Source: Escherichia coli (lineage in GTDB: Bacteria; Pseudomonadota; Gammaproteobacteria; Enterobacterales; Enterobacteriaceae). From it: a stretch of DNA of 64,000 nt. Location of the stretch: NCBI RefSeq assembly GCF_051903065.1, contig NZ_CP178438.1; one strand, given 5' to 3'. Below are positions 1,668 through 62,765 of this stretch, piece by piece. The translations under genes and the position numbers were made by a program. The notes beneath the pieces were generated by a model, which was not told the origin of the DNA, ran no database searches, and worked only from the letters and a program-made list of their open reading frames with translations. Numbering within the stretch: position 1 is the stretch's first letter; every line of letters starts with the position of its first letter.

Positions 1668-1702
1668 ATTCACCACCCTGAATTGACTCTCTTCCGGGCG
1701 CT

Positions 1703-1741
1703 ATCATGCCATACCGCGAAAGGTTTTGCGCCATTCGGCGG
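1703..1741 (-). promoter_or_regulatory. lacI promoter (-10 CATGAT, -35 GCGCAA) embedded in the 3' end of the upstream AraC-family gene
   Basis: Reverse complement contains GCGCAAAACCTTTCGCGGTATGGCATGATAG, matching the K-12 lacI promoter as recalled. Confidence 0.5.
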
Positions 1742-2657
1742 GGCTGACGCCGAAGTGAGATTTAAAATGCTGACGCCAGGTCACAGGTGAGAGAAAACCC
1801 ACCTCAGCCGCTATCCGCTCAACGGGCAACTGACTGGATCCCAACAGTTCCTGGCTACGGCGTAAGCGTTCAGTAATGAGCCATTCGGCGATACTCGAAC
1901 CGGTCGCTTTCATAAAATGGCGAGTTAATGTGCGGCGACTCATCATTACTCGCTGCGCCAGCGAGTCGAGATCATGCTGTTGCGCAATGTTTTGCCGCAG
2001 GTAATCCAGCAGGAGGTTTATGCGTTCATCATGGGTATTTTTCGGCACCGGTTGCTCAATAAACTGCGCCTGACCGCCGGTGCGATATGGCGGTACGACC
2101 ATCCGTCGGGCAATATGGTTAGCATAGTCGCTGCCAAAATGTTGCCGAACAATATACAAACAGCAATCCAGCGCCGCGGCAGTACCGGCAGAGGTAATAA
2201 TGCCGTCATCGTCTACGTACAACGCGTTAATATCCAGATGTGTTTGTGAAAAACGTGCCTGAAATTCACGCTCGAACTCCCAGTGCGTGGCGGCACGCTT
2301 ATTTTTCAGTAAACCTGCATAGCCGAGCACAAACGTGCCCAGGCAAAGCCCGACAATCTGTGCGCCGTTATCCCGTGCGGTCGTTAAGGCTTCCAGCAGT
2401 TTTTGTGGCGGTTTTTGTGTAATTGTTCCCCAGTAAGGAATTATCACAATATCCGCCTGGATGACTGCGGTATAGTCATGGGTGGCGGTTACGGAAAACC
2501 CATCGGCAGAGTCCACGTTTCCCGGCTTTTCAGCGCAGATAATTACGTGAAAGTGTTTTTTCTCCGCCATTTTTTCGCTAAATACGATAAACGGTACGGA
2601 AAGGTGAAAAGGACTAAAACCGGCAACGGCGATAATGGCAACAGTTAGCGGGCGCAT
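1704..2657 (-). CDS. AraC-family transcriptional regulator with N-terminal DJ-1/PfpI (class I glutamine amidotransferase-like) domain
   Basis: 317-aa ORF; the N-terminus (VAIIAVAGFSPFHLSVPFIVF..., a conserved Cys in GLCLGTFVL) looks DJ-1/PfpI-like and the C-terminus has an AraC-type HTH (RRTLTRHF...IAAEVGF). Not present at this position in K-12 as I recall it. Confidence 0.85.
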   Translation of the reverse strand: MRPLTVAIIAVAGFSPFHLSVPFIVFSEKMAEKKHFHVIICAEKPGNVDSADGFSVTATHDYTAVIQADIVIIPYWGTITQKPPQKLLEALTTARDNGAQIVGLCLGTFVLGYAGLLKNKRAATHWEFEREFQARFSQTHLDINALYVDDDGIITSAGTAAALDCCLYIVRQHFGSDYANHIARRMVVPPYRTGGQAQFIEQPVPKNTHDERINLLLDYLRQNIAQQHDLDSLAQRVMMSRRTLTRHFMKATGSSIAEWLITERLRRSQELLGSSQLPVERIAAEVGFLSPVTWRQHFKSHFGVSPAEWRKTFRGMA

Positions 2658-2676
2658 AACACTCTTTATCTCCGAA

Positions 2677-3453
2677 TTAGAATGTCAACGTTTCACCATC
2701 TTCTGGTACGTTCACAAATTCGATAATTTGATTATCTCTGGCGTATTCCTTGAGCGCATCACGCGTCAGCAAACAGTGGTTTACGGCCTCCATATGTGTC
2801 GCGACAATTTGCGCTTCTGGCAGGGTAAAATGTGTTTTGAGAATATCTTCTGCTCCCATAATTATCGCGCCATGCCCCAGAACATGCGCAAATCCGGCAT
2901 TCAACACAACCACTTCTGGTTGGAAAGTTAGCATTGTAACCTCGACGTCGTCACGCCAGAGGGTATCGCCAGCGAGATAGAGCGTTTTCTCTGTCGGGTG
3001 CTGGAAAACAACGCCGCAGGCTGCGCCTAAACGCTTCGCCATAGCCGGGTCGGCATAGGTGCGATCGGAGCCGTGCTGCCCTGTCGTTTTATGCAGAGTA
3101 ATATCGCCAAATTTAGTCTCGTCGGTAAGTACGGTAAGATGCGTAAATCCTTGTTTATTCAGTGATTCAGCATCTTGCTCATTTTGCACATAAATCGGTT
3201 TATCTTTAGGGACGACGCGGGAGGCTGTTTCGTCCCAGTGATCTTCATGCAAATGGGTCACGATTAGGGCGTCAACGTTGAGTAACGTTGTTAAATCGCA
3301 CGGTAATTCTACCGTTGGATTGCGGATTTCTGCGCGTGCCGTTCCGGCAAAACCCGGATAACTTCCTTTAGGCGCAAGTAACGGGTCGATAAGAAATGTT
3401 TTGCCAGCGTATTGGATAATTTGGGTGGCATTACGAATTTGCGTAATTTTCAT
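2677..3453 (-). CDS. MBL-fold metallo-hydrolase (beta-lactamase superfamily)
   Basis: ORF with the HxHxDH-type motif (THLHEDHWDE); probable ATG at 3453 preceded by GGAG (the ORF track extends to 3465). Its stop is 20 bp from the AraC-family start, suggesting co-transcription. Confidence 0.8.
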   Translation of the reverse strand: MKITQIRNATQIIQYAGKTFLIDPLLAPKGSYPGFAGTARAEIRNPTVELPCDLTTLLNVDALIVTHLHEDHWDETASRVVPKDKPIYVQNEQDAESLNKQGFTHLTVLTDETKFGDITLHKTTGQHGSDRTYADPAMAKRLGAACGVVFQHPTEKTLYLAGDTLWRDDVEVTMLTFQPEVVVLNAGFAHVLGHGAIIMGAEDILKTHFTLPEAQIVATHMEAVNHCLLTRDALKEYARDNQIIEFVNVPEDGETLTF

Positions 3454-3567
3454 GATTTGCTCCACATCACAGTATTGATGTCATTAGCGTAGCGTGCAGC
3501 CCGTACTGTGCATGTGGGCAAATGGGCGAATAACGATGAGAATGGGCCAAATTACACATTGGCGTAA

Positions 3568-4401
3568 CTAGCGTAAATGCACGCCGCTTCGCCGTCCGGC
3601 CACCAGAATAGCCTGCGATTCAACCCCTTCTTCGATCTGTTTTGCTACCCGTTGTAGTGCCGGAAGATGCTTTTCCGCTGCCTGTTCGATGGTCATTGCG
3701 CTCGCCATATACACCAGGTTCAAACAGCCAATCACCCGTTGTTCACTGCGCAGCGGTACGGCGATAGAGGCGATCTTCTCCTCCTGATCCCAGCCGCGGT
3801 AGTTCTGTCCGTAACCCTCTTTGCGCGCGCGCGCCAGAATGGCTTGCAGCTTTAACGGTTCTCGTGCCAGTTGATAGTCATCACCGGGGCGGGAGGCTAA
3901 CATTTCGATTAATTCCTTGCGTTCTTGTTCCGGGCAAAAGGCCAGCCAGGTCAGGCCCGAGGCGGTTTTCAGAAGCGGCAAACGTCGCCCGACCATTGCC
4001 CGGTGAAAGGATAAGCGGCTGAAACGGTGGGTGGTTTCGCGTACCACCATTGCATCAACATCCAGCGTGGACACATCTGTCGGCCATACCACTTCGCGCA
4101 ACAGATCGCCCAGCAGTGGGGCCGCCAGTGCAGAAATCCACTGTTCGTCACGAAATCCTTCGCTTAATTGCCGCACTTTGATGGTCAGACGAAAACTATC
4201 ATCGGAGGGACTACGCCGGACATATCCCTCTTCCTGCAGCGTCTCCAGCAGTCGCCGCACAGTGGTGCGATGCAGGCCGCTGAGTTCCGCCAGCAGCCCG
4301 ACGCTGGCACCGCCGTCAAGTTTATTTAACATATTTAATAACATTAGACCGCGGGTTAAGCCGCGCACGGTTTTGTATTCCGTCTGCTCATTGTTCTGCA
4401 T
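3568..4401 (-). CDS. mhpR: IclR-family activator of the mhp operon, MhpR
   Basis: Translation from the ATG at 4401 (MQNNEQTEYKTVRGLTRG...) gives the 277-aa MhpR; divergent from mhpA. Confidence 0.93.
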   Translation of the reverse strand: MQNNEQTEYKTVRGLTRGLMLLNMLNKLDGGASVGLLAELSGLHRTTVRRLLETLQEEGYVRRSPSDDSFRLTIKVRQLSEGFRDEQWISALAAPLLGDLLREVVWPTDVSTLDVDAMVVRETTHRFSRLSFHRAMVGRRLPLLKTASGLTWLAFCPEQERKELIEMLASRPGDDYQLAREPLKLQAILARARKEGYGQNYRGWDQEEKIASIAVPLRSEQRVIGCLNLVYMASAMTIEQAAEKHLPALQRVAKQIEEGVESQAILVAGRRSGVHLR

Positions 4402-4434
4402 ATTAATTGACATTTCTATAGTTAAAACAACGTT

Positions 4435-4449
4435 GTGCACCTGGTGCAC
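4435..4449. promoter_or_regulatory. Palindrome GTGCACCTGGTGCAC in the mhpR-mhpA divergent region (candidate MhpR operator)
   Basis: 15-bp palindrome seen directly in the sequence; I recall an MhpR operator of this form but could not verify it. Confidence 0.45.
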
Positions 4450-4591
4450 ATTCGGGCATGTTTTGATTGTAGCCGAAAACACCCTTTCTATACTGAGCGC
4501 ACAATAAAAAATAATTTACATGTTTTTAACAAAATAAGTTGCGCTGTACTGTGCGCGCAACGGCATTTTGTCCGAGTCGTGAGGTACTGAA

Positions 4592-6256
4592 ATGGCAATA
4601 CAACACCCTGACATCCAGCCTGCTGTTAACCATAGCGTTCAGGTGGCGATCGCTGGTGCCGGTCCGGTCGGGCTGATGATGGCGAACTATCTCGGCCAGA
4701 TGGGCATTGACGTGCTGGTGGTGGAGAAACTCGATAAGTTGATCGACTACCCGCGTGCGATTGGTATTGATGACGAGGCGCTGCGCACCATGCAGTCGGT
4801 CGGCCTGGTCGATAATGTTCTGCCGCATACTACGCCGTGGCACGCGATGCGTTTTCTCACCCCGAAGGGCCGCTGTTTTGCTGATATTCAGCCAATGACC
4901 GATGAATTTGGCTGGCCGCGCCGTAACGCCTTTATTCAGCCGCAGGTCGATGCGGTGATGCTGGAAGGGGTGTCGCGTTTTCCGAATGTGCGCTGCTTGT
5001 TTTCCCGCGAGCTGGAGGCCTTCAGTCAGCAAGATGACGAAGTGACCTTGCACCTGAAAACGGCAGAAGGGCAGCGGGAAATAGTCAAAGCCCAGTGGCT
5101 GGTGGCCTGTGATGGTGGGGCAAGTTTTGTCCGTCGCACCCTGAATGTGCCGTTTGAAGGTAAAACTGCGCCAAATCAGTGGATTGTGGTAGATATCGCC
5201 AACGATCCGTTAAGTACGCCGCATATCTATTTGTGTTGCGATCCGGTGCGCCCGTATGTTTCTGCCGCGCTACCTCATGCGGTACGTCGCTTTGAATTTA
5301 TGGTGATGCCAGGAGAAACCGAAGAACAGCTGCGTGAGCCGCAAAATATGCGCAAGCTGTTAAGCAAAGTGCTGCCTAATCCGGACAATGTTGAATTGAT
5401 TCGCCAGCGTGTCTACACCCACAACGCGCGACTGGCGCAACGTTTCCGTATTGATCGCGTACTGCTGGCGGGCGATGCCGCGCACATCATGCCGGTATGG
5501 CAGGGGCAGGGCTATAACAGTGGTATGCGCGACGCCTTTAACCTCGCATGGAAACTGGCGTTGGTTATCCAGGGGAAAGCCCGCGATGCGCTGCTCGATA
5601 CCTATCAACAAGAACGTCGCGATCACGCCAAAGCGATGATTGACCTGTCCGTGACGGCGGGCAACGTGCTGGCTCCGCCGAAACGCTGGCAGGGTACGTT
5701 ACGTGACGGCGTTTCCTGGCTGCTGAATTATCTGCCGCCAGTAAAACGCTACTTCCTCGAAATGCGCTTCAAGCCGATGCCGCAATATTACGGCGGTGCG
5801 CTGGTGCGTGAGGGCGAGGCGAAGCACTCTCCGGTCGGCAAGATGTTTATTCAGCCGAAAGTCACGCTGGAAAACGGCGACGTGACGCTACTCGATAACG
5901 CGATTGGCGCGAACTTCGCAGTAATTGGCTGGGGATGCAATCCACTATGGGGGATGAGCGACGAGCAAATCCAGCAGTGGCGCGCGTTGGGCACACGCTT
6001 CATTCAGGTGGTGCCGGAAGTGCAAATTCATACCGCACAGGATAACCACGACGGCGTACTACGCGTGGGGGATACGCAAGGTCGCCTGCGTAGCTGGTTC
6101 GCGCAACACAATGCTTCGCTGGTGGTGATGCGCCCGGATCGCTTTGTTGCCGCCACCGCCATTCCGCAAACTCTGGGCAAGACCCTGAATAAACTGGCGT
6201 CGGTGATGACGCTGACCCGCCCTGATGCCGACGTTTCTGTCGAAAAGGTAGCCTGA
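4592..6256 (+). CDS. mhpA: 3-(3-hydroxyphenyl)propionate hydroxylase (FAD monooxygenase)
   Basis: 554-aa ORF with the FAD-binding GxGxxG motif ([18 protein letters not shown]); first gene of the mhpABCDFE order. Confidence 0.95.
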
Positions 6257-10899: not shown

Positions 10900-11062
10900 C
10901 CAGCACGACTGCCGGATGCGGCGTGAACGCCTTATCCGGCCTACGGGTGGCGTGAGAATTTGTAGGCCTGATAAGACGCGCAAGCGTCGCATCAGGCATC
11001 TGCACACGACTGCCGGATGCGGTAAACGTCTTGTCCGGCCTACATTTCGCCCGTAGGCAGTC
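10900..11062. repeat. REP/BIME cluster (about three REP units in alternating orientation)
   Basis: Repeated gccggatgcggcgtgaacgccttatccggcctac-type palindromic units between mhpE and mhpT. Confidence 0.85.
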
Positions 11063-12989: not shown

Positions 12990-13003
12990 ACATAGATAAG
13001 TCG

Positions 13004-13118
13004 TGCGCAGATGCCTGATGCGACGCTATGCGCGTCTTATCATGCCTACGGCCTGCTACGGTTTATGGGCGAAGTGTAGGCCGGATAAGGCGTTCACGCC
13101 GCATCCGGCAGTCGTGCA
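13004..13118. repeat. REP/BIME cluster
   Basis: Two REP-like palindromic units (gatgcctgatgcgacgc...; gtaggccggataaggcgttcacgccgcatccggca) between yaiL and frmB. Confidence 0.85.
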
Positions 13119-15470: not shown

Positions 15471-15496
15471 TTCGCACCTCATCATCTGCACGCAAT

Positions 15497-15545
15497 ATAC
15501 TATAGGGGGGTATGCTATATGTCAATGCATACCCCCCTATAGTAT
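15497..15545. promoter_or_regulatory. frmRAB promoter operator: inverted repeat with G6 and C6 tracts
   Basis: atactataggggggtat (15497..15513) and its reverse complement atacccccctatagtat (15529..15545) lie just upstream of the frmR start, the architecture typical of CsoR/RcnR-family operators. Confidence 0.7.
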
Positions 15546-15629
15546 ATAACACTGGAGAATAATTGTTGTCCGAAGCCTAACCAGGTGAACGGTCCCTCAA
15601 GACAGATGGGGACCGTTTATGTGCTATTT

Positions 15630-16676
15630 TTATGCCGCATCCGCTAAAACAAACATCCCGTAAGGATGGATTTCGAGGTAATAGTGCTCACCAATATCGG
15701 GCTGTAAACGGGTGGCGTTTACTTGTAATAAAATCTCCTGTCCATGCCACTCTACGGTCACTTCGTACTGCGGCCCCATGTAGGCGACATGGCGAATAAC
15801 ACAACGCTGACTCTCTTCGCCGTGATTGCTTAAGGTGATGGCTTCCGGGCGAACGCCGACGGTGCCGCTACCTTGCGCCGGGAAATGCGCCGCGCGCGGC
15901 AGGCGATAACCGTAGATATCGACATACTCTTCGCTAAAGTTCGCCGGGAACAGGTTGGCGTCGCCCATAAAACTTGCCATAAATCGGGAGGCTGGCTGAC
16001 GATAGAGATCCTGCGGTGAGCCAATCTGCATGATGTGACCTTTATTCATCACCAACACAGTGTCGGACACCGCGAAAGCTTCACTTTGATCGTGAGTGAC
16101 GTAGAGCGACGTGATATTAAACTGCTTTTGCAGCTCGCGGATCTTATCGCGCATACTGCGGCGCAGGTTGGCATCGAGGTTACTTAACGGCTCATCAAAC
16201 AGCAGCACCTTTGGCTTGAGGATCAACGCGCGGGCCAGTGCCACACGCTGTTGCTGACCACCGGAAATCTGATCGACATAGCGGTCCTCGAAGCCTTCCA
16301 GATCCACCATTGCCAGCGCCTCCTTCACCCGCTGTTTCACTTCGCTACGCGAGACGCCAAGCATCTTCAGCCCGTAGCCAACGTTTTCACCCAGCGACAT
16401 ATGCGGGAACAGAGCGTATGACTGAAACACCATGCAGATATCGCGCTGTTGAATGGAACGATGCGTGACATCTTCGCCATCAATAAAAATTTGCCCTTCG
16501 CTCGGTTTTTCCAGCCCGGCAACCAGACGCAAAATGGTGGTTTTGCCACAGCCGGAAGGACCGAGCAGCGTCACCATTTGCCCTTGTGGAATGGTGAGAT
16601 TGATATTGTCGATAACCGTATTACTGCCGAATCGTTTAGTGACGTTGCGCAGTTCAACAAAATTTTTCTGACTCAT
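15630..16676 (-). CDS. ABC transporter ATP-binding protein (AfuC/FbpC-like)
   Basis: Walker [10 protein letters not shown], signature [15 protein letters not shown], Walker B LLFDEP; start placed at the MSQKNF ATG (16676) preceded by GGAG, with an alternative ATG at 16688 overlapping the upstream stop. Confidence 0.85.
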
Positions 16677-16687
16677 AGTGCGCTCCA

Positions 16688-18766
16688 TTACGCCTGGTTT
16701 TTGGCTTTAGAACGGGAGATACGAGCTTCTCCGATCAGCCAGTCAAAGAGGAAAATAATCGCCAGCATCACCACGATCAGAATCGAACCATAGGCGATGG
16801 CTACGCCATATTCGCCGTCTTCAACGCGGTTAAGAATGTAGGCGGTTGCCACGCGGGTGTCCGGCGTGACGAGAAAGACGATGGCGCTGACCGTCGTGAT
16901 GGCCCGCACAAAGCTGTAGATCAGGGCCGAGAGAATGGCCGGACGCAGCAGTGGCAGTAAAATGTGGGTTATGGTTCGCAAGGAACCTGCGCGCAGGCTG
17001 AGTGAGGCTTCATCCAGCGATTTGTCGATCTGCCCCAGGCCTGCAATCCCGGCGCGAATACCCACCGGAACGTTACGCATCACCATCGAGATAATCACAA
17101 TTGCCGCCGTTCCGGTGAGATAAACCGGAGCGCTGTTAAAGGCAAGAATATACGAAACGCCCGCCACCGTACCCGGTACGGCAAAGCACAGCATGGTGGT
17201 GAACTCGATGGTCTTTTTGCCTTTGAATTGTTGACGCACCACCACCCAGGCGATGAGCAGGCCAAAGATAGCGGTAATGGGAGCGGCAATCCCGGCGTAG
17301 AGCAGGGTATCCAGCAGTGAAGGCCACGCGCCGTCGCTCATTCCCTGACCAAATAGCTTGATAAAGTTATCCAGCGTCAGGGTGTAGTCCACGCCCCAGT
17401 TCACCGTGAAGCTGCCGTAGAAAATGCTGCCGTAGAGCAGGGCGTTAAAGGCAATCCATATCGCAAGTATGGCGACCACGCTCCACACCAGGGTGACCGG
17501 TAGCGGCTGGACGTCGCCACGGTAGGATTTGCCGGAAACCGTGACGTAAGAGCGTTTACCAATCCACATATACTGGATGCAGAACACCAGCAGCGAGAAC
17601 AGCAGCAGGAAAGCGCCAAGGGTGCTGGCGGCCTGATAATCCAGCTGCGAGCCGGTAATATAGAAGTAAATTTGCGTCGCCAGTACGTCGAAGTTACCGC
17701 CAAGTACCAGCGGGTTACTGAAATCAGCCAGTGACTGTACCACGACGATTAAAAAGGCATTGGCGAGTGCGGGCTTCAACAACGGCACAAACACGCCGTT
17801 AAAGGTTTGCCAGCGGCTGGCGCGCAGGGTGTAGGAGGCCTCTTCCAGCGAGGGATGAATGGTTTTAATGGCCCCGTCGAGGATCATAAATGCCATTGGC
17901 GTGAATGCCAGAACCTGTGCCAGCCAGATCCCGGTAAAACCGTACAGCCAGTTGGTGTTGGTCAGCCCAAACCACTCCACCATAAATTCCGTAACATAGC
18001 CGGAGCGCCCCATCATGAGCGTCACGCCTAAGCCGACCACAAACGGTGGCGTAACGATGGGCAAAATGGAAAAGATGCGACCAATAATGGCGCTGCGTTT
18101 AGCGATGCGCGTGGTATAAATCGCCAGCACCAGGCCGAAGAAAGTACAGCCTATCCCCACCGCTATCGACAAGACGATAGAGTTGACGATCACCTGAACA
18201 ATATGTGCCTGCGAGAGCACGGTCATAAACGCCAGCGGGGCGAACTCTCCCGCGTCGTTGGTGAACATCGGGATAAAAATGGCGATGCTCGGCCAGACGA
18301 TAAAAATGCCAATCAGCGCCACAATCGCAATCAGTGAGCCGATCACGAAGCGGTCGCCACCCAGCCATTCGAGGCGGGTTAAGGCCAGCGTCATAATCGC
18401 GCCTAGTTCGACAAACAGCACGATGGCGGCGTAGCCTAAACCGCGTCCAACCACGGTGGCGCTGATGACGATAAACGCCATACAGAGCAATGCCCAGCCG
18501 GCATCGAAATAATGACGGCTACGTTGTTCGCGCGTGGCCTCACTAAACGGGCGGACCAGCAACAGGCTCGGGAGTAAATACCACAGCCAGCTGATATTAA
18601 AATGCGACCAGCCATAAGCCTCGAGGATCTCATCACTCGTGGACTCCAGCAGGCCATAATCGAGGCTCCAGCTCGGCAACAGTATAAATGCCAGCCAGCC
18701 CAGCAAAACCCAAAGGAAAATCGCATCCCGCTTTTTCACGGGATGGAGTGCAAGTGTCTGTGACAT
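16688..18766 (-). CDS. ABC transporter permease, two fused transmembrane domains (AfuB/FbpB-like)
   Basis: About 692-aa highly hydrophobic ORF; probable ATG at 18766 ([12 protein letters not shown]); the ORF track extends to a TTG at 18817. Confidence 0.82.
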
Positions 18767-18834
18767 AGTAGTTCCGGTATGGTTGGCCGGGGCAGGCGTT
18801 TGTGCTGCACCCGGCAAATACGCCTAATGCGGGT

Positions 18835-19866
18835 TTATTTACCCATCTTCACTTCGCTGACCCATTTATTAATCAATGCCTTACGAACATCCGTGGAACC
18901 ATATTTATCCATGTCGTAGTTGATTAATTTCAGGTCGTCGAGCTTCAGCGAATTTGGCGACGTTTCGGCGGTGGTATTGGTCAGGATCTGATAAGACTTC
19001 CCTTTCTTCCACGCCAGTTCCTGAGCTTCTTTTGATAATACCCAGTCCACAAACAGTTTGGCGTTGTCGAGGTTGCGCGCGCCTTTCAGAATGCTGACGC
19101 CGCCAATTTCGTAGCCCGTACCTTCACACGGGGAAATCAACTCCAGCGGCGCGCCCTGTTCTTTTTCCAGCGAGTAGTCATGCAGGAAGCCAATACCAAT
19201 CGCCGTTTCGCCACGGGCGGCGTTACGTGCCGGGGCTATGCCTGATTTGGTGTACTGAGAGACGTTGGCGTTCAGTTGTTTTAGATAATCAAAGGCCTGA
19301 TCTTCCCCCCACAGCTGCGCAAAAGTAGCCAGGGCGGTGTAGGCAGTACCGGAACTTTGCGGATCGGCAATTTGAATTTCGCCTTTATATTCCGGTTTGG
19401 TGAGATCTTTCCAGCACTTCGGCACCGGCAGGTTTTTCTCTTTCAGACGATCGGTGTTTACGCCAAAACCGAGGATCCCCACATAAACGGCAGAGGACAG
19501 ATTCCCTTTCACTTTTGCCGGATCGCGGAATTTCTCCATGATCTGCTCAAGGGTAGGGGATTTATACGCCTGTAGCAGGCCCATCTCGCCAGCCTGCGAT
19601 TGCGGGTCTAAAGTGCCGCCGTACCAGACGTCAGCCTGGGGGTTTTTCTTTTCAGCATCGACTTTTGCCAGGGTGCTTCCGGAACCGTTGCGGATAAACG
19701 AGGTTTTTACATCATATTTCTCGCCAAACGCTTTGGTTTCGGCCTCACACATTTCATTGGTGGCGCTGCAATAGACCACCAGCCGGCCTTTTGCCTGCGC
19801 GGCACCCGTTAAAGTCGCCAGCGCAACGGCAGAAGCAATCAGAGTAGAGGTAAAGGTCATTTTCAT
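18835..19866 (-). CDS. periplasmic substrate-binding protein (AfuA/FbpA-like, likely sugar-phosphate binding)
   Basis: Starts MKMTFTSTLIASAVALATLTGAAQA (signal peptide); the ATG at 19866 overlaps the stop of the upstream MFS gene (ATGA). The longer track ORF to 20193 is a frame artefact. Confidence 0.85.
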   Translation of the reverse strand: MKMTFTSTLIASAVALATLTGAAQAKGRLVVYCSATNEMCEAETKAFGEKYDVKTSFIRNGSGSTLAKVDAEKKNPQADVWYGGTLDPQSQAGEMGLLQAYKSPTLEQIMEKFRDPAKVKGNLSSAVYVGILGFGVNTDRLKEKNLPVPKCWKDLTKPEYKGEIQIADPQSSGTAYTALATFAQLWGEDQAFDYLKQLNANVSQYTKSGIAPARNAARGETAIGIGFLHDYSLEKEQGAPLELISPCEGTGYEIGGVSILKGARNLDNAKLFVDWVLSKEAQELAWKKGKSYQILTNTTAETSPNSLKLDDLKLINYDMDKYGSTDVRKALINKWVSEVKMGK

Positions 19867-21179
19867 TGTTTTATCCTTCGAGCGTGAGTGGTGGTGATGC
19901 CCGCCATCAGTAACGGCATCAGCAGTAAACCCATAAGTACTGCGGCGACCGAGAGTAAACTGAACATTCCCGGCCAGCCGTAGCGTTCGATGACCAGCGA
20001 CAGCGGCCAGCCTGCCAGCGCCGCGCCAAGGTAAGCGAACAGGCCGAGAAATCCGGTGATTGAACCCGCCGCAGCTTTGTGCCCACACTCCACCGCCGCA
20101 AGTCCAATCAGCATTTGTGGGCCAAAGACGAAAAAGCCCACGGTAAAAAAGCACACTGCCAGCAGAGCGTAGTGATGAACCGGTGCCAGCCACAGTGCGG
20201 CGACTGACACCATCAACCCCAACGTGAACAGCAAAATCATTGGCGCTCGTTGCCCGCTAAACAGCAAATCCGATCCCCATCCGGCAAATAACGCGCCGAG
20301 TAAGCCGCCCACTTCAAACAGCATTACCGTGGCGTTGGCGCTGAGCAGGTTGACACCGTGGCTTTCCGTCAGCCAGATATTGCCCCAGTCGTTAAGCGCA
20401 ATCCGGATCACATAAACCAGTACATAAGAGACGCCCAGTAGCCAGATCAGCGGATTTTGCAGCATGGTGGTGCGCAACATTTGCCACAGCCCCATCGGCG
20501 GACTTTGTTGTTCCTGACGTAACTCCAGCGGATCGTGACGCCAGTGACCAACTGTCGGTAATCCCTCTTCCTGGGGCGTGCCTTTGAGTTGTAGCGTTAA
20601 CCAGATCCCTAATGCCATGCTGATTATCCCCGGTGTCAGCATCGCGGCCTGCCAGCCCCACCAGTGGGCGGCAAAGGCGCTAATCAGCGGAATAATCGCT
20701 CCGCCAATGTTGATCGACATATTCCAGCAGCCCCACCAGAAACCGCGCTCATTGCGTGAGTACCAGTGGGTCAGCAAGCGGGCACACGGTGGCCATCCCC
20801 AGCCCTGAAAAAAACCGTTCAGTGTCCAGACCACAAGCAGAAGCGTAAGTGATTCGCCAAAGGCAAACACCACGTTCAATAACCCGGTGGCGAACAAGCC
20901 GACGCCCATAAAACCGCGTTGTCCGTGGCTGTCATGCCACAGTCCGGCGGTAAATTTCGACAATCCGTAGCTGAGATAAAACAGCGAACCCAGCAGGCCA
21001 ATGTCGCCTTTATCCAGTCCGAGGTCGGTTTGTAGCGCCGGAAGGACGTAATTCACGCTTTTTCGCGTCAGATAAAATGCGGCGTAGCCAATAATCATGC
21101 ACATCAGCAATCGCGGACGTAATGCCCGGTAGCATTGATTAATTTCTCTCGCTGAACGCGCGTGCATGGTTGTCTCCAT
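19863..21179 (-). CDS. UhpC-like MFS sugar-phosphate sensor/transporter (organophosphate:phosphate antiporter family)
   Basis: 438-aa ORF with 12-TM MFS character and clear similarity to UhpC as recalled (GYAAFYLTRKS, FQGWGWPPCARLLTHWYSRNERG); an alternative ATG lies 4 codons downstream. Confidence 0.82.
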   Translation of the reverse strand: METTMHARSAREINQCYRALRPRLLMCMIIGYAAFYLTRKSVNYVLPALQTDLGLDKGDIGLLGSLFYLSYGLSKFTAGLWHDSHGQRGFMGVGLFATGLLNVVFAFGESLTLLLVVWTLNGFFQGWGWPPCARLLTHWYSRNERGFWWGCWNMSINIGGAIIPLISAFAAHWWGWQAAMLTPGIISMALGIWLTLQLKGTPQEEGLPTVGHWRHDPLELRQEQQSPPMGLWQMLRTTMLQNPLIWLLGVSYVLVYVIRIALNDWGNIWLTESHGVNLLSANATVMLFEVGGLLGALFAGWGSDLLFSGQRAPMILLFTLGLMVSVAALWLAPVHHYALLAVCFFTVGFFVFGPQMLIGLAAVECGHKAAAGSITGFLGLFAYLGAALAGWPLSLVIERYGWPGMFSLLSVAAVLMGLLLMPLLMAGITTTHARRIKQ

Positions 21180-21251
21180 GTTGCTGACTATATGAAAATG
21201 AAAGTGAAAGGGGATGAGAGAAAATCCGGGATACCTAAGACTTTTTCCTGG

Positions 21252-22793
21252 TTATCCGGCGATTTGTTGCAAAAATGTGGGCAAGTTAACAATTACCCGC
21301 GTGCCGTGCTGTTTTTCGAGCGTTAAGTCGCCGCCCAGGGCGCTGACGCGCTCACGCATCCCCTGAATGCCAAATCCGGCCATTTTCCCGCTGGCGATCC
21401 CCACACCGTTGTCGCTGACCTCCAGATGCAATACCTCTCCCTGCTGGCGCAGGATAATCGTCACTTCGCTGGCTTCGGCGTGTTTACAGACGTTATTGAG
21501 CAACTCCTGCAATAACCGATACAAGGTAAAGCGCACCGTTTCGTTTTCTGGTGTGGAGTTCAGTTGATAGGCAAACTGGCAATGAATGCCGCGTTCACCA
21601 AAGGCAAATTCATTAATCAGATGCAACAACGCTTCGCGAAATGTCAGTTCATCAAGCGCGGGAGGCCGCAACTGGCGCAGCAATTGGCGGGTGGAGAGAT
21701 GAATGCGGCGGGCGAGCTCATTGATTTGGCTGGCTGCGGATTGAATTTGCGCCGGATCACGCGCCCGCTTCACCAGTTGCGACTGGATCTGAATGGCGGT
21801 GATGTTCTGACCGATTTCGTCGTGCAGCTCTCGCGCCAGGTTTTTTCGCGTGTCCTCCTCGGTGTGGATCAACTTTTCCGCCAATGCCCGCCGCGCTGCC
21901 AGCTCGGCCTCCAGCCGTTGTCGGTAATGGTGCAGGTTTAGCGCCAGATGTTGCTGGCGACTGATGGCAATGCCCAGGCCAATTCCCAGCAAGGCCTGGG
22001 TCGCGAGGAAAATCTCCAGCTCCACCAGGTTACTAAAGCCCACGCCAATCTGGCGGGCGATGGTGATCATCATGCTGCCCAAAAGCCCGGAGAGTACGCC
22101 ACCTTGCCAGCCAAATTTCCACGCCATCACCACATTGGGCAAAAAGACCACGATCAACAGCAGACGCTCAATTTCAGGTGACAGCACCATCTGAGTGCCG
22201 ATACCAATGATAAAAAACAGGCTACACCAGATGATTAAAGAGGTACGCAAGGGGGGATTATGCGTATCGAGTCCCAGGAGCTGGTAGCGATGCTGCTGGC
22301 GCAGAAACTCAAAGATAAGATAGACAAACGGCGTCAGTAATACGCCGCCGGTAAATGAGGTCAAACCCGGCAGCATTATTGGGCCTGACATAAAAGGGGA
22401 GAGCAGGGCGGTATTCAACAATGAAGCTGCCGTGACAGTGGCTAACAGCAACGTCAGACGCTGCCAGTAAAGTGGAAAACGGTGCCAGAAGTTTTGCGCA
22501 AGGAGGACAGGAAACAGGCTAATAACCGGCGTTGCCAGCATGAGATAACCGTTCAATAGCTGCTCACTATGGAGCCAGAACATCATCAGCAAAGGGGGGA
22601 GTACCAACGCAGGCCAGTAGCGGCGAGAGAGCAAAATAACAAGGGCGAGATAAACTCCCTGCGGGAGAAACAACACCGCCTGTTGACCGTTATTGGTCAG
22701 ATAAAAGCTGAGCGTCCACAGCATCAGCCAGCCGGTTCCCCAGGCCAACACAATAAACAGCGAAATCACCCAATGACGAAGATTGCGCGACAT
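21252..22793 (-). CDS. UhpB-like sensor histidine kinase (MASE1 membrane domain plus HisKA_3/HATPase)
   Basis: 513-aa ORF; the C-terminus has an H-box (RELHDEIGQNITAI) and ATPase motifs (DNGVGI, GFGIQGMRERV), similar to UhpB as recalled. Confidence 0.85.
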   Translation of the reverse strand: MSRNLRHWVISLFIVLAWGTGWLMLWTLSFYLTNNGQQAVLFLPQGVYLALVILLSRRYWPALVLPPLLMMFWLHSEQLLNGYLMLATPVISLFPVLLAQNFWHRFPLYWQRLTLLLATVTAASLLNTALLSPFMSGPIMLPGLTSFTGGVLLTPFVYLIFEFLRQQHRYQLLGLDTHNPPLRTSLIIWCSLFFIIGIGTQMVLSPEIERLLLIVVFLPNVVMAWKFGWQGGVLSGLLGSMMITIARQIGVGFSNLVELEIFLATQALLGIGLGIAISRQQHLALNLHHYRQRLEAELAARRALAEKLIHTEEDTRKNLARELHDEIGQNITAIQIQSQLVKRARDPAQIQSAASQINELARRIHLSTRQLLRQLRPPALDELTFREALLHLINEFAFGERGIHCQFAYQLNSTPENETVRFTLYRLLQELLNNVCKHAEASEVTIILRQQGEVLHLEVSDNGVGIASGKMAGFGIQGMRERVSALGGDLTLEKQHGTRVIVNLPTFLQQIAG

Positions 22794-23422
22794 TAATGCC
22801 CCGCCAGCAGATGGTGGTCGAGCGCAAAATGTACCAGTTCAATGGTGCTATGGCAGTTCAGTTTTCCCAGCACATTGGCGCGATGCACATGTACCGTTTT
22901 ATGACTGAGTTCGAGTTTAAAGGCGATCTCTTTAACGCTGTCTCCTTTGACCAGTAAATCAAACACTTCACGTTCTCGTGGGGTGAGAATTTCCAGCGCC
23001 TGGGCGGGTTGCCCGCCGCCGCGTAAAGCCCGAATCGCATCGGCACAGAGATAATGCCCGCCCAGCCCGACCGAGCGCACCGCCTGTACTAACTCTTCCG
23101 GCCCACAGCGTTTGGTTAAATACCCGCTGGCACCGGCATCCAGCGCGCTTTGCACAAAGGTTGGCGCGTCATAAATGCTAAGAATAATGGCGCGAAATTG
23201 CGGTTTTTGTGCACGCAGGCGCTTAAGCAAACTGAGGCCGTTTTCGTCCGGCATGGCAATATCAATGACGGCAACATTGACGTCATCACGGATTAATGCC
23301 GACCATGCCTGCGCGGCACTACTGTACTGACCAATGACCTCCAGATCGTCTTCCAGAGAGAGTAATTGTGCGAAGCCAGAGCGCACCACCACATGGTCAT
23401 CCACCAGCACTACCCGAATCAT
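22793..23422 (-). CDS. UhpA-like response regulator (NarL/LuxR family)
   Basis: 209-aa ORF (MIRVVLVDDHVVVRSGFAQLL...) with a C-terminal LuxR HTH (LTPREREVFDLLVKGDSVKEIAFKLELSHKTVHVHRANVLGKL); 1-nt TAATG overlap with the kinase gene. Confidence 0.88.
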   Translation of the reverse strand: MIRVVLVDDHVVVRSGFAQLLSLEDDLEVIGQYSSAAQAWSALIRDDVNVAVIDIAMPDENGLSLLKRLRAQKPQFRAIILSIYDAPTFVQSALDAGASGYLTKRCGPEELVQAVRSVGLGGHYLCADAIRALRGGGQPAQALEILTPREREVFDLLVKGDSVKEIAFKLELSHKTVHVHRANVLGKLNCHSTIELVHFALDHHLLAGH

Positions 23423-23724
23423 ACTTTTCTTCTCTTATTATCTAATTCTCCTATCATGCATCACGGCGCGGCGCTGGCAATCAACCAGCGACAGATATGG
23501 AATGGATGTAACAAAATGGCAATAATTTGCCGGAGCGCGCACATCTTATCTGGCTTGTGAACCGGCGGGATACGTTCGCCAAAACCGCAAAATGCGCAAA
23601 CTCGCTAACCATTGCCGATTTTTTTCTAAAAACGCTTTGTTCTTAACAAGACCTTTTAATTCCTTTATCAAACTGACCCGCAACGAAATACTGCTCCCAT
23701 AACAAGACAGGGGAGCAGACAATC

Positions 23725-27139: not shown

Positions 27140-27149
27140 TACGAGAGTG

Positions 27150-27240
27150 GACGGTCCCCTCGCCCCCTTGGGGAGAGGGTTAGGGTGAGGGGGCGTTCAC
27201 CGTGCTTTCAACAGGTTAACTCCCCCTTTCTGAGAGGAAA
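27150..27240. other. G/C-rich structured intergenic element between convergent tauD and hemB (probable bidirectional terminator)
   Basis: cccctcgccccc...ggggagagggttagggtgaggggg is capable of stable hairpins; recalled as resembling a recurrent E. coli intergenic motif, unverified. Confidence 0.35.
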
Positions 27241-27245
27241 CAAAA

Positions 27246-36236: not shown

Positions 36237-36253
36237 TCAAACAGGAATGTCAT

Positions 36254-36284
36254 GCCAGATAAGGCGTTTTAGGCCGTATCTGGC
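36254..36284. terminator. hairpin between convergent yaiW and yaiY (candidate bidirectional terminator, REP-like)
   Basis: Inverted repeat gccagata...tatctggc. Confidence 0.4.
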
Positions 36285-36294
36285 AACGTAAATC

Positions 36295-45731: not shown

Positions 45732-47065
45732 TTCCTCGCCTTCCCCTTGAACGGGAGGGCATTTTTCTGAAATATCCTCTCTTTAACCCATAATAATATT
45801 TCCTTTGCTGCGATTTTTTCAATTTCCGATATATTCATAATTCATCAAGGTTGATATCAATATCATTGAAGATTATGAATAGAATTAATATATTGGTCAT
45901 CTGTATGGTCGTGTTTTTTATGACTGGCAATGCATGTGCCACAGAGTGGATCAGTAGCGAGGACCTTATCACCTCTGACTTTCATCTTATGACGGCAGAT
46001 GAGCGCAACGTGGTTAAAGCGGCAACCGACGATAGTATGGAAGCTGCTTATATGCTAAAAGATAATATCCGCTGGTATTATCATAATGGTAACCTATCAT
46101 TACCCGCTAACTTCAGCAATCAAAATAAACTGGTGGTGAACGGTAATTTAACGATTTCCGGCGATTATGATGATTATCTGTCAGGTAATGGTCATCTGAT
46201 TGTATTAGGTAATGTTATTGTCGATAACTTTATTAATCATGATTTCGCGTATGTCAAAGGACAGATGACAGCGAAAGGTTTAGTTTATGCTGATTACAAT
46301 GATCACAACTTTGAAGTGATGAAGGGAATTAGCGCGCGAGGCATTATTGTTTCCGATAAAGCAACGCAATTTGAGGTCATCAAAGCTGAGTTTTATATCA
46401 ATGAAGATGAAAGCGGTGAAGGATATAACTGGGATGAGAATATTCAAAAAGCCTATTCACTGGTGACTGCCGATCTTTATGATCACACTGAAATCGAAAC
46501 CGATAACATTTCCAATGCGTATCCTGACTATGATAGCGTCGCAGACAACATCGTTCAGGGTTTACCTCTTTTTTGCGATAAAGCCGCTCCTGAAATTAAT
46601 GAGAAATTAAAATGGATTGAAACGGGGAAACTCGATAATTTCCCAGCGAATAAAATAAAGCATCAAGATCCACTGGTGGCACGTTTTCTGACTCATACAG
46701 AGAGTTTATCACCCGCCGTTATGCTGCAACTGTTACAGCACCCCGATGACCAGACGCGTGAATCGATGGCGCAGTCCTGGCCCGCTCAACAGATGCATTT
46801 GCTTACCGATGAATTAATTAAAGATGAGGCTGTTGCCAGAGGGCTGGTTAAAAACAGTAATATTTCCGCCGATGTGAATAAAAAATTAATGTCTGTACCC
46901 GTCGAGAGCGTACAGCTGGAGCAGGCCAGACAGGATAATCTTTCTCCAGATATTGTTGCGTCGTTAAGTCATAGCCCCTTTCTCAGTGTACGCAAGACAT
47001 TACTCAGCCAGGTGATGCTGCCAACTTACTGATTTAGTGTATGATGGTGTTTTTGAGGTGCTCCA

Positions 47066-47341
47066 GTGGCTTCTGTTTCTATCAGCTGTCCCTCCTGTTC
47101 AGCTACTGACGGGGTGGTGCGTAACGGCAAAAGCACCGCCGGACATCAGCGCTATCTCTGCTCTCACTGCCGTAAAACATGGCAACTGCAGTTCACTTAC
47201 ACCGCTTCTCAACCCGGTACGCACCAGAAAATCATTGATATGGCCATGAATGGCGTTGGATGCCGGGCAACAGCCCGCATTATGGGCGTTGGCCTCAACA
47301 CGATTTTACGTCACTTAAAAAACTCAGGCCGCAGTCGGTAA
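47066..47341 (+). CDS. insA: IS1 protein InsA
   Basis: 91-aa ORF ([43 protein letters not shown]...) at IS1 positions 56..331. Confidence 0.95.
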
Positions 47342-47763
47342 CCTCGCGCATACAGCCGGGCAGTGACGTCATCGTCTGCGCGGAAATGGACGAACAGTGG
47401 GGCTATGTCGGGGCTAAATCGCGCCAGCGCTGGCTGTTTTACGCGTATGACAGGCTCCGGAAGACGGTTGTTGCGCACGTATTCGGTGAACGCACTATGG
47501 CGACGCTGGGGCGTCTTATGAGCCTGCTGTCACCCTTTGACGTGGTGATATGGATGACGGATGGCTGGCCGCTGTATGAATCCCGCCTGAAGGGAAAGCT
47601 GCACGTAATCAGCAAGCGATATACGCAGCGAATTGAGCGGCATAACCTGAATCTGAGGCAGCACCTGGCACGGCTGGGACGGAAGTCGCTGTCGTTCTCA
47701 AAATCGGTGGAGCTGCATGACAAAGTCATCGGGCATTATCTGAACATAAAACACTATCAATAA
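47260..47763 (+). CDS. insB: IS1 InsB (transposase made as an InsAB' fusion by -1 frameshift at the A6C motif near 47317..47323)
   Basis: 167-aa ORF in the -1 frame relative to insA; the aaaaaac slippery site is present in the overlap. Confidence 0.93.
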
Positions 47764-48927
47764 GTTGGAGTCATTACCACTCAGCCATTACGATTACGCC
47801 TGGCTGGTTCCGACTGCAGTGGCCGATGAGTTGATAAATAACGAAGACCCGGAGTTACGTGAAAGAATTACCGGAGCAGATTTAACCGCACAACAAGCAG
47901 TGATGTTGAGTAAAGATAAATCACTGAAAGTTCGTGAAGCATTAGCCCGGACGCTTACTGAATTAAAAATTACCCAACTGTCAGCAACCCTGCGTACAGA
48001 GGATATTGAACGTATCGCAGAACAAATGTATCTGGATAATAAAGAAAATAAAAATATCGTAAAAGCGTTATTGATAGCGTTGCCGGAGATGCGTCAACTG
48101 TCTCTGGCAAAAGAAGATGTGCACAATTTGCGCGAAGGTGCGCGTTATCTGACATCGAAGGACGTGATTAGTTATCTATTGACTCAGCATGATGTTCCCA
48201 CCGTCTGGGATGAGCTGGCACGCGATAAATTATTGCCGCTGGAATATAAGAAACAGTTATGGCAACGCACATTAAATTTAATGATGAGCAAACGGCAAGA
48301 AGATCAAGAGCAAGCCTACGAAGTACAGCTGGCGCTGATTGATAATGGTGTTGTTGACGAAGAGATGTTAAATAATGCCATTGATTTACTGGTTGATTTA
48401 CCCGCTGAATACCGCTATCGAATGCGTAACCAATTATTTGATAATAAAGATTTACCTTCCGGAATTATCAACAAACTCGATCAACAGTATCGCTTCAACT
48501 CTGACTGGGCGCTGTCTGTTGACAGTATGAAAAATAGCACCCGTAGGCAAAGTGAAAGAGGATTACACCGCTGGAACCGTGAGGATAGCGATATTTTTGC
48601 GGAACTGGCGACGATAAAAGATAAATCAGATGATGAATGGTGGCGTGCATTGCTGCAAAGTCGCAATGATCATTTGCGCCAAACGGCATTACGCAACGCA
48701 CATACCCCGGCGTCGTTGTTAACGACATTGACTGAGCCTCAGGATCGGTCGCTGGCTATTAATAATCCACAGCTGGCTGCCGATGTGAAAACGGCGTGGT
48801 TAAAAGAGGATCCATCATTACTCTTATTTGTCGAACAACCCGATCTTTCGCTGTTACGTGATTTAGTGAAAACCGGGGCAACGCGGAAAATTCGCAGTGA
48901 AGCGCGTCACCGGCTTGAGGAAAAACA

Positions 48928-49383
48928 ATGACACAACGTCCATGGAGCAAGTTACAGCGGGAGATCTATGACTTACTGACGCCAACGATCAACCTGCAAA
49001 TTCACTGTACCCGTTATCCCATGCGCAGCCAAAATGGTGGAAGCACCGATTTACCGCGTTATTGGATCACGTTGGATAAAAACGTGATCTGGGATTACCC
49101 GAAAGACTTTATTGCAGGTAACGGTGGAGTGCGTAATTTTCACGGTGAAACTTGCTGGTATCCTTACCTGACGGATATTTGTTCAATTTCTGATTTATTG
49201 CGTGAATATATTGATACCCCAAAAGCGGAGCTGTTAACAAAACAATTTACCAGCGATAAATGGGGGTTAGTGAATATTCTGCGTGCTGCTGACAGGCGAA
49301 TAGGGATGAGGCGATTAGATCAGTTACGGCGTAAAACGCATAATATTGCTGCGCTAAAAATTATTGCCCGCCGTAGCGAATAA
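48928..49383 (+). CDS. hypothetical 151-aa protein, translationally coupled to the upstream repeat-protein gene
   Basis: ATGA start/stop overlap at 48928..48931; no signal peptide; no family recognised. Confidence 0.6.
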
Positions 49384-49401: not shown

Positions 49402-49446
49402 TTCGTACGCCGGATAAGACGCGGCAGGCGTCGCATCCGGCATTAA
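49402..49446. repeat. REP element
   Basis: gtacgccggataagacgcggcaggcgtcgcatccggcat palindromic unit before the rdgC 3' end. Confidence 0.8.
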
Positions 49447-51424: not shown

Positions 51425-51525
51425 CATCATGCCTGATGCGACGCTTGCCGCGTCTTATCAGGCCTACAAAATGTGCCAGAACCGCGTAGGGCGGATAAGG
51501 CGTTCACGCCGCATCCGGCAATAAG
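51425..51525. repeat. REP/BIME cluster (two REP units)
   Basis: catgcctgatgcgacgcttgccgcgtcttatcaggcctac and gtagggcggataaggcgttcacgccgcatccggca between mak and araJ. Confidence 0.85.
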
Positions 51526-62607: not shown

Positions 62608-62765
62608 TACTTGCGTTCTGTAAGCCGGTTCAGGAGGAAATCCTGATCCGGCTATTCCGAAAGTTATCCGCCCCCGTCCTCCTCCCCCAAATATCCTTCA
62701 GATGATGAGTGATCCTGCATTAGGCTATGGCAAGGTGATCAGATTTTCATCACAGGGGAATTATG

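Follow-up and report, generated by a model that had tools for sequence, protein, structure and literature searches.

REP palindromic units, three BIME-2-type mosaics among them, in the lacZ–malZ region of an Escherichia coli chromosome

Five intergenic sites in a 64-kb stretch of E. coli chromosome carry sequences which almost certainly belong to the E. coli REP (palindromic unit) family; they form three BIME-2-type mosaics, one fixed singleton and one relic, and the mechanism which we propose for them below is the most likely one. The stretch, called the window throughout, runs from lacZ to malZ and is near-identical to strain 23CRST027 (NZ_AP045789.1, 682308-746307); the first 47 kb contain 7 mismatches. 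The literature on REP/BIME elements goes back to the 1980s and already covers their 3' location, Y/Z2 structure, copy-number polymorphism and targeting by IS1397. The finding reported here is already-known biology, and the elements are ordinary ones.

Identity and structure of the REP units

By direct reading we found REP-type palindromes at all five places where a first-pass annotation of this DNA had put them, and its coordinates and flanking gene names proved correct. We then aligned the eight clear units of the window into a covariance model (R1) with a 12-pair stem and searched both strands of the 64 kb with filters off. This pattern search, which the first-pass annotation had proposed, returned eight strong units (47–61 bits, E 3e-11 to 4e-15) and one degenerate unit at 36248-36288 (26 bits, E 4e-5). 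It detected no further REP unit beyond the five sites; the remaining matches were the reverse strand of known units or had E ≥ 0.3. The scores of the eight strong units are circular, since the model was made from those units, so the informative results are the lack of extra matches, the degenerate unit and the matches in other strains. Within the window, a 17-nt tail pattern, CGYCTTATCMGGCCTAC, with up to 3 mismatches allowed, matched the eight strong units and one 3-mismatch stretch inside mhpB, which is a chance match; nine matches in total compare with a chance expectation of 0.39 and were reached in 0 of 100 shuffles. A pattern of fixed loop length built from the quoted unit ends recovered a single unit, since loop length varies and the two arms are unlike (GATGCG versus TTATC), and the covariance model and tail pattern were used instead. 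Queries that contain the units had matches in 5425 of 5426 E. coli genomes, with a median of at least 37 per genome, and unit pairs from different loci were 88–100% identical over 36–42 nt (repeat pairs I1, I2 and I3). The copy of the K-12 RefSeq annotation that we examined lists no REP features.

Length, loop and outer stem divide the units into two types. Y units are 35 nt long (GCCGGAT...GTGAA...ATCCGGC) and Z2 units 37–38 nt (GCCTGAT...ATCAGGC); y and z2 of E. coli have been described with the same unit lengths and GTAG tag (PMC8266576). The predicted hairpins are stable on both strands (z of -2.5 to -5.3 versus shuffles). Across the eight units, 97.9% of the cells of the 12-pair stem are paired, the unpaired column 14/30 is conserved, and two stem pairs differ on both sides between Y and Z2, as compensatory changes do. 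The sequence CCTAC/GTAGG is found in seven of the eight strong units; it is missing from the unit near rdgC, which has GTAC, and from the degenerate unit.

Site 1, between mhpE and mhpT, has three units. The first, of Y type (10907..10945, plus strand; 61.3 bits, E 4e-15), reads 5'-GCCGGATGCGGCGTGAACGCCTTATCCGGCCTAC with GTAG on the complementary strand, and its stem begins 48 nt past the mhpE stop codon. The second, an inverted Z2 (10961..11001, minus strand; 60.9 bits), lies tail-to-tail with the first across a 17-nt linker and head-to-head with the third, a Y unit (11008..11044, plus strand; 47.5 bits, E 3e-11) with a shortened loop and mutations in loop and stem (GCGGTAAACGTCTTGTCC). K-12 and SCU-316 both keep this altered unit at the end of their arrays. 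Beyond it, the distal flank (11045..11062, plus strand; ATTTCGCCCGTAGGCAGTC) holds a GTAGGC stub in all five strains compared, whatever their unit number. The stub looks like a truncated additional unit, and the flank resembles the linker of site 2 (repeat pair I5).

Site 2, between yaiL and frmB, has two units. A Z2 with one stem mismatch, ATCATGCC (13009..13050, plus strand; 56.7 bits; repeat pairs I6 and D8), begins its stem 23 nt past the yaiL stop and is preceded by the remnant of a head-to-head linker, AGTCGTGCGCAG, at 12999-13010. The second unit, a Y (13075..13113, minus strand; 61.4 bits), is a perfect inverted copy of the first unit of site 1 over 42 nt (I1, 100% complementary), and its stem begins 15 nt past the stop codon of frmB (fghA), which lies on the minus strand. 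Site 4, between mak and araJ, likewise pairs a Z2 (51427..51468, plus strand; 59.8 bits), whose stem begins 25 nt past the mak stop, with a tail-to-tail Y (51485..51523, minus strand; 57.6 bits) across an 18-nt linker; the Y has one stem mismatch, GGGCGGAT, and lies 28 nt from the araJ stop.

The other two sites hold one unit each. At site 3, between an SF0329-family gene and rdgC, a single Z2-like unit (49404..49445, minus strand; 58.1 bits) has a Y-like outer stem, CCGGAT, and GTAC in place of GTAG; it is 26 nt from the SF0329-family stop and 19 nt from the rdgC stop. Site 5, between the convergent genes yaiW and yaiY, is the degenerate unit, a REP relic (36248..36288, minus strand; 26.2 bits, E 4e-5) that has lost GTAG and the internal mismatch and keeps a hairpin z of -4.3 to -4.8. 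Its outer stem, GCCAGAT/ATCTGGC, is still paired through a double change from G-C to A-T. Orthologues of this relic score 22–30 bits and have decayed differently in different strains.

At sites 1, 2 and 4, Y and Z2 units alternate in inverted orientation, which is the BIME-2 arrangement. The tail-to-tail linkers are 17, 26 and 18 nt long, respectively, and the head-to-head gap at site 1 is 6 nt. We considered BIME-1, in which Y and Z1 units flank a long L linker with an IHF site, and rejected it: no match to the IHF consensus WATCAANNNNTTR falls inside any REP site, no linker exceeds 26 nt, and no unit has the 29-nt length of Z1. Because the linkers lack the IHF consensus, the sites are of BIME-2 and not BIME-1 type. 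With BIME-2 in the Bachellier/Gilson classification (as given in PMC3333891) the window sites share alternating Y and Z2 units, short linkers, the GTAG tag and the lack of an IHF site, together with tandem amplification and a unit number that varies among strains at one locus. They show no material difference from it, the linkers being compared by length and not by the S/s/l/r motif letters; the window alleles are short (2–3 units, versus 4–9 in K-12). The first-pass annotation had spoken of four REP/BIME clusters, and the term holds for sites 1, 2 and 4, but the rdgC site is a single unit and not a BIME.

Position relative to genes and to accessory segments

All nine units are intergenic, lie 3' of at least one gene at 10–48 nt from a stop codon, and avoid divergent spacers altogether. 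In a census of the 57 spacers of the window, four of the five convergent spacers that reach 45 bp contained a REP, versus one of 23 tandem spacers of that length and none of nine divergent ones, that is, one of the 32 non-convergent spacers compared (Fisher p = 4e-4). The idea that REPs mark operon boundaries is borne out to the extent that they lie in 3' spacers, but it is too general, as REPs are missing from the majority of operon ends in the window. The accurate rule is that REPs occur at 3' ends, mainly at convergent gene pairs. Among the convergent spacers that reach 45 bp, only tauD/hemB (27140-27245) has no REP; it is 106 bp long in the window and in K-12 and 39 bp in Nissle and CUVET19-970.

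The first-pass annotation had seen no REP inside two putative acquired regions, and systematic searching agrees. With the covariance model and filters off, we detected no REP-family unit in the afu/uhp segment (15471-23724), which is present in 524 of 5426 genomes; the covariance model likewise found none inside the DUF2773 and SF0329 genes between ppnP and rdgC or in the ovrA/MBL segment. The afu/uhp and DUF2773-SF0329 copies of SCU-316 and O157 also had no REPs, nor did the yaiO-yaiS segment that K-12, Nissle and CUVET have instead. What does not stand is the further step of reading this absence as consistent with a foreign origin, which is statistically unsupported, absence being expected by chance. 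At backbone rates, the probability of finding zero REPs in the afu island is ~0.25–0.33 when calculated per kb and ~0.75 when calculated per eligible spacer. Inside the island no two genes converge, and just three of its tandem spacers, counting the frmR/afuC boundary spacer, reach 45 bp. With so few eligible spacers and so high a chance probability, the absence carries almost no evidential weight. Lack of REPs is therefore unfit as a sign of foreign DNA in short segments unless it is scaled to the count of eligible, and especially convergent, 3' spacers.

Three hairpins or matches were considered as further REPs and set aside. The intercistronic afuA/afuB hairpin at 18789-18818 (minus strand; GCCGGGTGCAG...CTGCCCCGGC), a candidate REP within the island, scored 7.8 bits (E 6) and was no more stable than its shuffles (z -1.5). 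Its likeness to a Y REP is 74%, and each of the 524 genomes with the segment has it once; placed 3' of the gene for the binding protein in the afu ABC operon, it may be a gene-specific intercistronic hairpin. A 12.4-bit match at 19338-19372 is inside the afuA coding sequence and was treated as chance. The hairpin at 62623-62653 between proY and malZ (GCCGGTTCAGGA-GGAAA-TCCTGATCCGGC) has REP-like ends, yet scores 10.2 bits (E 1.3); it is probably a gene-specific hairpin 3' of proY.

Two other features of the accessory DNA were observed. At the junction of the afu island, just upstream of frmR, a perfect 21-nt inverted repeat (ATATACTATAGGGGGGTATGC / GCATACCCCCCTATAGTATAT) spans 15495-15547; with a G/C tract between TACT and AGTA, it looks like the operator of FrmR, a CsoR/RcnR-type regulator. 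Between lacI and mhpR, at 1668-3567, lie ovrA (annotated as an OI-19-encoded virulence regulator) and a gene for an MBL-fold hydrolase, both missing from K-12, where lacI abuts mhpR.

Variation among strains and the history of the rdgC site

The first-pass annotation had also suggested comparing copy number among strains. We counted units in six strains and measured length classes in evenly spaced samples of 5,426 complete genomes, which together sample the species and are not a full census. Across the six strains the BIME sites vary and the rdgC singleton does not. Site 1 has three units in the window, nine in K-12, three in SCU-316 and one each in O157 86-24 and CUVET19-970; Nissle has no mhp operon. 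At site 2 there are two units in the window, O157 86-24 and CUVET19-970, four in K-12 and Nissle, and five plus one split by IS1397 in SCU-316. Site 4 has two units in the window, O157 86-24 and CUVET19-970, four in K-12 and Nissle, and one plus a truncated Y in SCU-316. Site 3 has a single unit in all six strains, and site 5 a single relic in each, that of CUVET19-970 being recognised by eye, below the E 0.01 cut-off. The BIME arrays differ in whole steps of ~101 bp, each a Y plus a Z2, between a constant first and a constant last Y, and length classes ~101 bp apart were also seen in samples of 60 and 45 genomes. Tandem unit number that depends on the strain is published BIME-2 behaviour (PMC3333891).

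The sites whose units lack GTAG (3 and 5) are the only ones invariant in number, a correlation over two sites. The TnpA-REP of E. coli has been reported to tolerate no mutation of GTAG (PMC8266576), and the invariance fits that requirement and does not prove it. The unit at site 3 is identical in the six E. coli strains, and of 5426 genomes at least 5417 have it.

The IS1397 copy in SCU-316 (L005 ~3732-5165, yaiL/fghA) is inside the loop of a Z2 unit and is flanked by a TTGC direct repeat. This IS3-family element is known to target the loops of palindromic units (PMC3333891, PMC1525189), and its insertion in the yaiL/frmB Z2 loop agrees with the published specificity. The window itself has no IS1397; its sole insertion sequence is an IS1A, unrelated to the REPs, at 47011-47778 (768 bp) inside the DUF2773-family gene (45875-48931), with a 9-bp target duplication, ACTCAGCCA, at 47002-47010 and 47779-47787. 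As the sole structural difference from 23CRST027, this IS1A must be a very recent insertion. Gene coordinates past 47779 are those of the 23CRST027 annotation plus 777, and the shifted reading frames were verified.

In order to place the rdgC unit in a wider context, we compared 80 rdgC loci from different species, five of them Escherichia and 75 from outside the genus, including Salmonella, Citrobacter, Klebsiella, Enterobacter, Kosakonia and Kluyvera. None of the 75 non-Escherichia loci has a DUF2773 or SF0329 gene, and in each of them ppnP and rdgC converge directly. E. albertii, E. whittamii and two other Escherichia species have one or both genes at this locus; the fifth Escherichia locus, that of the representative E. 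coli, has the K-12-type deleted remnant only. The DUF2773-SF0329 segment has a GC content of 41–44%, versus 52% for the backbone. To judge from these comparisons of sequence, it is a genuine Escherichia-specific insertion as old as the genus. Rather than a strain-specific insertion, the ppnP-rdgC segment is thus a genus-old one in which most E. coli carry an internal deletion. The K-12 genes ykiA and ykiD (L004 11609-12030) are the two ends left by this deletion within DUF2773-SF0329 (window segment 45732-49383). The deleted form is the majority, in ~36 of 44 rows of an evenly spaced E. coli sample, with its right end near window position 49322.

The rdgC REP occurs at all five Escherichia loci, ~17 nt past the rdgC stop, and is absent from most outgroups, an absence that holds at E < 1e-3 only (nhmmer), the REP of Escherichia sp. 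E1V33 having been missed at that threshold and found by eye. Its tag is intact as GTAG in E. albertii and Escherichia sp. MOD1-EC7003 and reads GTAC in E. coli. In E1V33 (L009 6931-6970) the orthologue has turned perfectly palindromic, GCCGGATGTGACGCAC-TGG-GTGCGTCACATCCGGC, which looks like the result of one arm being copied over the other. The outgroup ppnP/rdgC spacers that we read (33–71 bp) contain a plain GC hairpin, except for three Citrobacter loci (L016, L019 and L021) with REP-type units of their own in the intact rdgC/ppnP spacer. In the window, directly past the ppnP stop, a hairpin with a T-run, GCCTTCCCC-TTGAA-CGGGAGGGC (45738-45768), corresponds by position to the rdgC/ppnP hairpin shared by Salmonella, Citrobacter and Klebsiella; it is the ancestral hairpin, which has stayed on the ppnP side of the DUF2773-SF0329 insertion. 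The view that REP sites belong to the conserved backbone therefore fails for the rdgC REP, which is at the junction of an Escherichia-specific insertion where outgroups mostly have a plain hairpin. Given this placement, the REP arrived together with the island or later than it, and it does not belong to the ancestral backbone.

The spacer 3' of mak also contains varied hairpins or REP-like units across genera. The slot for a 3' hairpin is thus conserved while its occupant changes, which supports a generic role for 3' hairpins. REP-type units of Salmonella, Citrobacter, Kosakonia and Phytobacter share GCCGGAT...ATCCGGC hairpins with those described here, often with GTAG/CTAC, and in some species of Enterobacteriaceae such units are in the same convergent 3' spacers (rdgC/ppnP and the mak 3' end). 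However, their loop and stem details and their presence in each species differ, and they are independent occupants and not orthologues. In the mak/araJ spacer of MOD1-EC7003 (L013 ~4900-4945), the end of a Z2 unit has expanded into six tandem CATCAGG heptamers.

Proposed function and alternative explanations

We propose, by analogy with REPs studied elsewhere, that the units lie in transcribed 3' untranslated spacers and would form GC-rich RNA hairpins from either strand. Such hairpins would block 3'-to-5' exonucleases, protecting the upstream mRNA, and would cause partial, largely Rho-dependent termination, reducing read-through into the next or opposing gene. A stabiliser and partial Rho-terminator role, together with an association with convergent pairs, has been described (bioRxiv 10.64898/2026.03.23.713779); the same study found REP effects to be strongly context-dependent, and earlier reporter work included some REPs that gave no stabilisation. 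The units would be non-autonomous, recognised through GTAG and the hairpin by a single-copy TnpA-REP (RAYT) encoded elsewhere; the tnpA-REP gene lies between yafL and fhiA (PMC3333891), outside the window. BIME-2 arrays would be mobilised and amplified through TnpA-REP; that they gain and lose whole Y+Z2 units, and so differ among strains, is seen directly in the strain comparison. Family membership, hairpin potential, 3' location, the absence of U-tracts, expansion by whole units and targeting by IS1397 come from direct analysis of these loci, and from the analogy we infer a regulatory effect of the REPs at them.

The strongest competing explanation is that the repeats are purely selfish or neutral, REPIN-like passengers of TnpA-REP which have gathered in 3' spacers because they are harmless there. 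The range of one to nine units in the mhpE/mhpT array among healthy strains is what such passengers would show, as are the lineage-specific decay of site 5 and the truncation of a Y unit in SCU-316, and the literature reports weak or no effects for some REPs. But a passenger would not be expected to remain identical at site 3 in six strains and to persist in 5417 or more of 5426 genomes and across Escherichia species, nor would the stem of the site 5 relic be expected to be preserved by compensatory change. REPs also fill a slot where outgroups keep a hairpin, and in published data REP325 changes the expression of both its neighbors. We consider neutrality a possible but rather unlikely account of these units.

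A more specific history can be imagined for site 3. In an ancestor of Escherichia the low-GC island would have split rdgC from its ancestral hairpin, which stayed beside ppnP (45738-45768), and a REP would have been recruited as a replacement and then, in the E. coli lineage, fixed and immobilised by the change from GTAG to GTAC; more generally, REPs may repair 3' ends orphaned by islands, and the BIME unit number of each strain (1 to 9 at mhpE/mhpT) may tune read-through into mhpT. This extended scenario is speculative and rather unlikely.

It is very improbable that site 1 encodes a nucleoid-associated sRNA of naRNA4 type that would condense DNA in trans together with HU. Rfam RF02564 does match the second and third units on the minus strand (10965-11040), and its 68.6 bits exceed the gathering score of 59.5. 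However, this match is antisense to mhpE-mhpT transcription, while the sense strand scores 44.5, below the threshold; no promoter-like site is nearby, and the model describes a Y-Z2 pair, so that any head-to-head BIME-2 pair would match; the match itself speaks for membership of the REP family. RF02564 scores at all other REP sites fell below the gathering threshold. The 12-unit Y/Z2 array REP325/naRNA4, between yjdM and yjdN, resembles site 1 in its unit types, its head-to-head Y-Z2 architecture and its place between tandem genes, but site 1 has three units against 12, and its Rfam-sense strand is antisense to local transcription. A naRNA4 gene at site 1 was set aside for reasons of strand and literature.

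The idea that the units are ordinary gene-specific intrinsic terminators, similar by coincidence, has a negligible chance of being right: they are strong hairpins just past stop codons, but none of the units in the window is followed by a T-run or coincides with a terminator-like site, and the 88–100% identity between loci over 36–42 nt, the dozens of copies per genome and the variation of array size by whole units are repeat-family evidence that refutes it.

We return to the preferred reading of the units as REP-family elements with a stabiliser and partial terminator role. The five sites can now be annotated with unit types and strands, and they have little importance beyond annotation. The natural alleles with one, three and nine units at mhpE/mhpT would provide a convenient series in which to test the stabiliser-plus-partial-terminator model.
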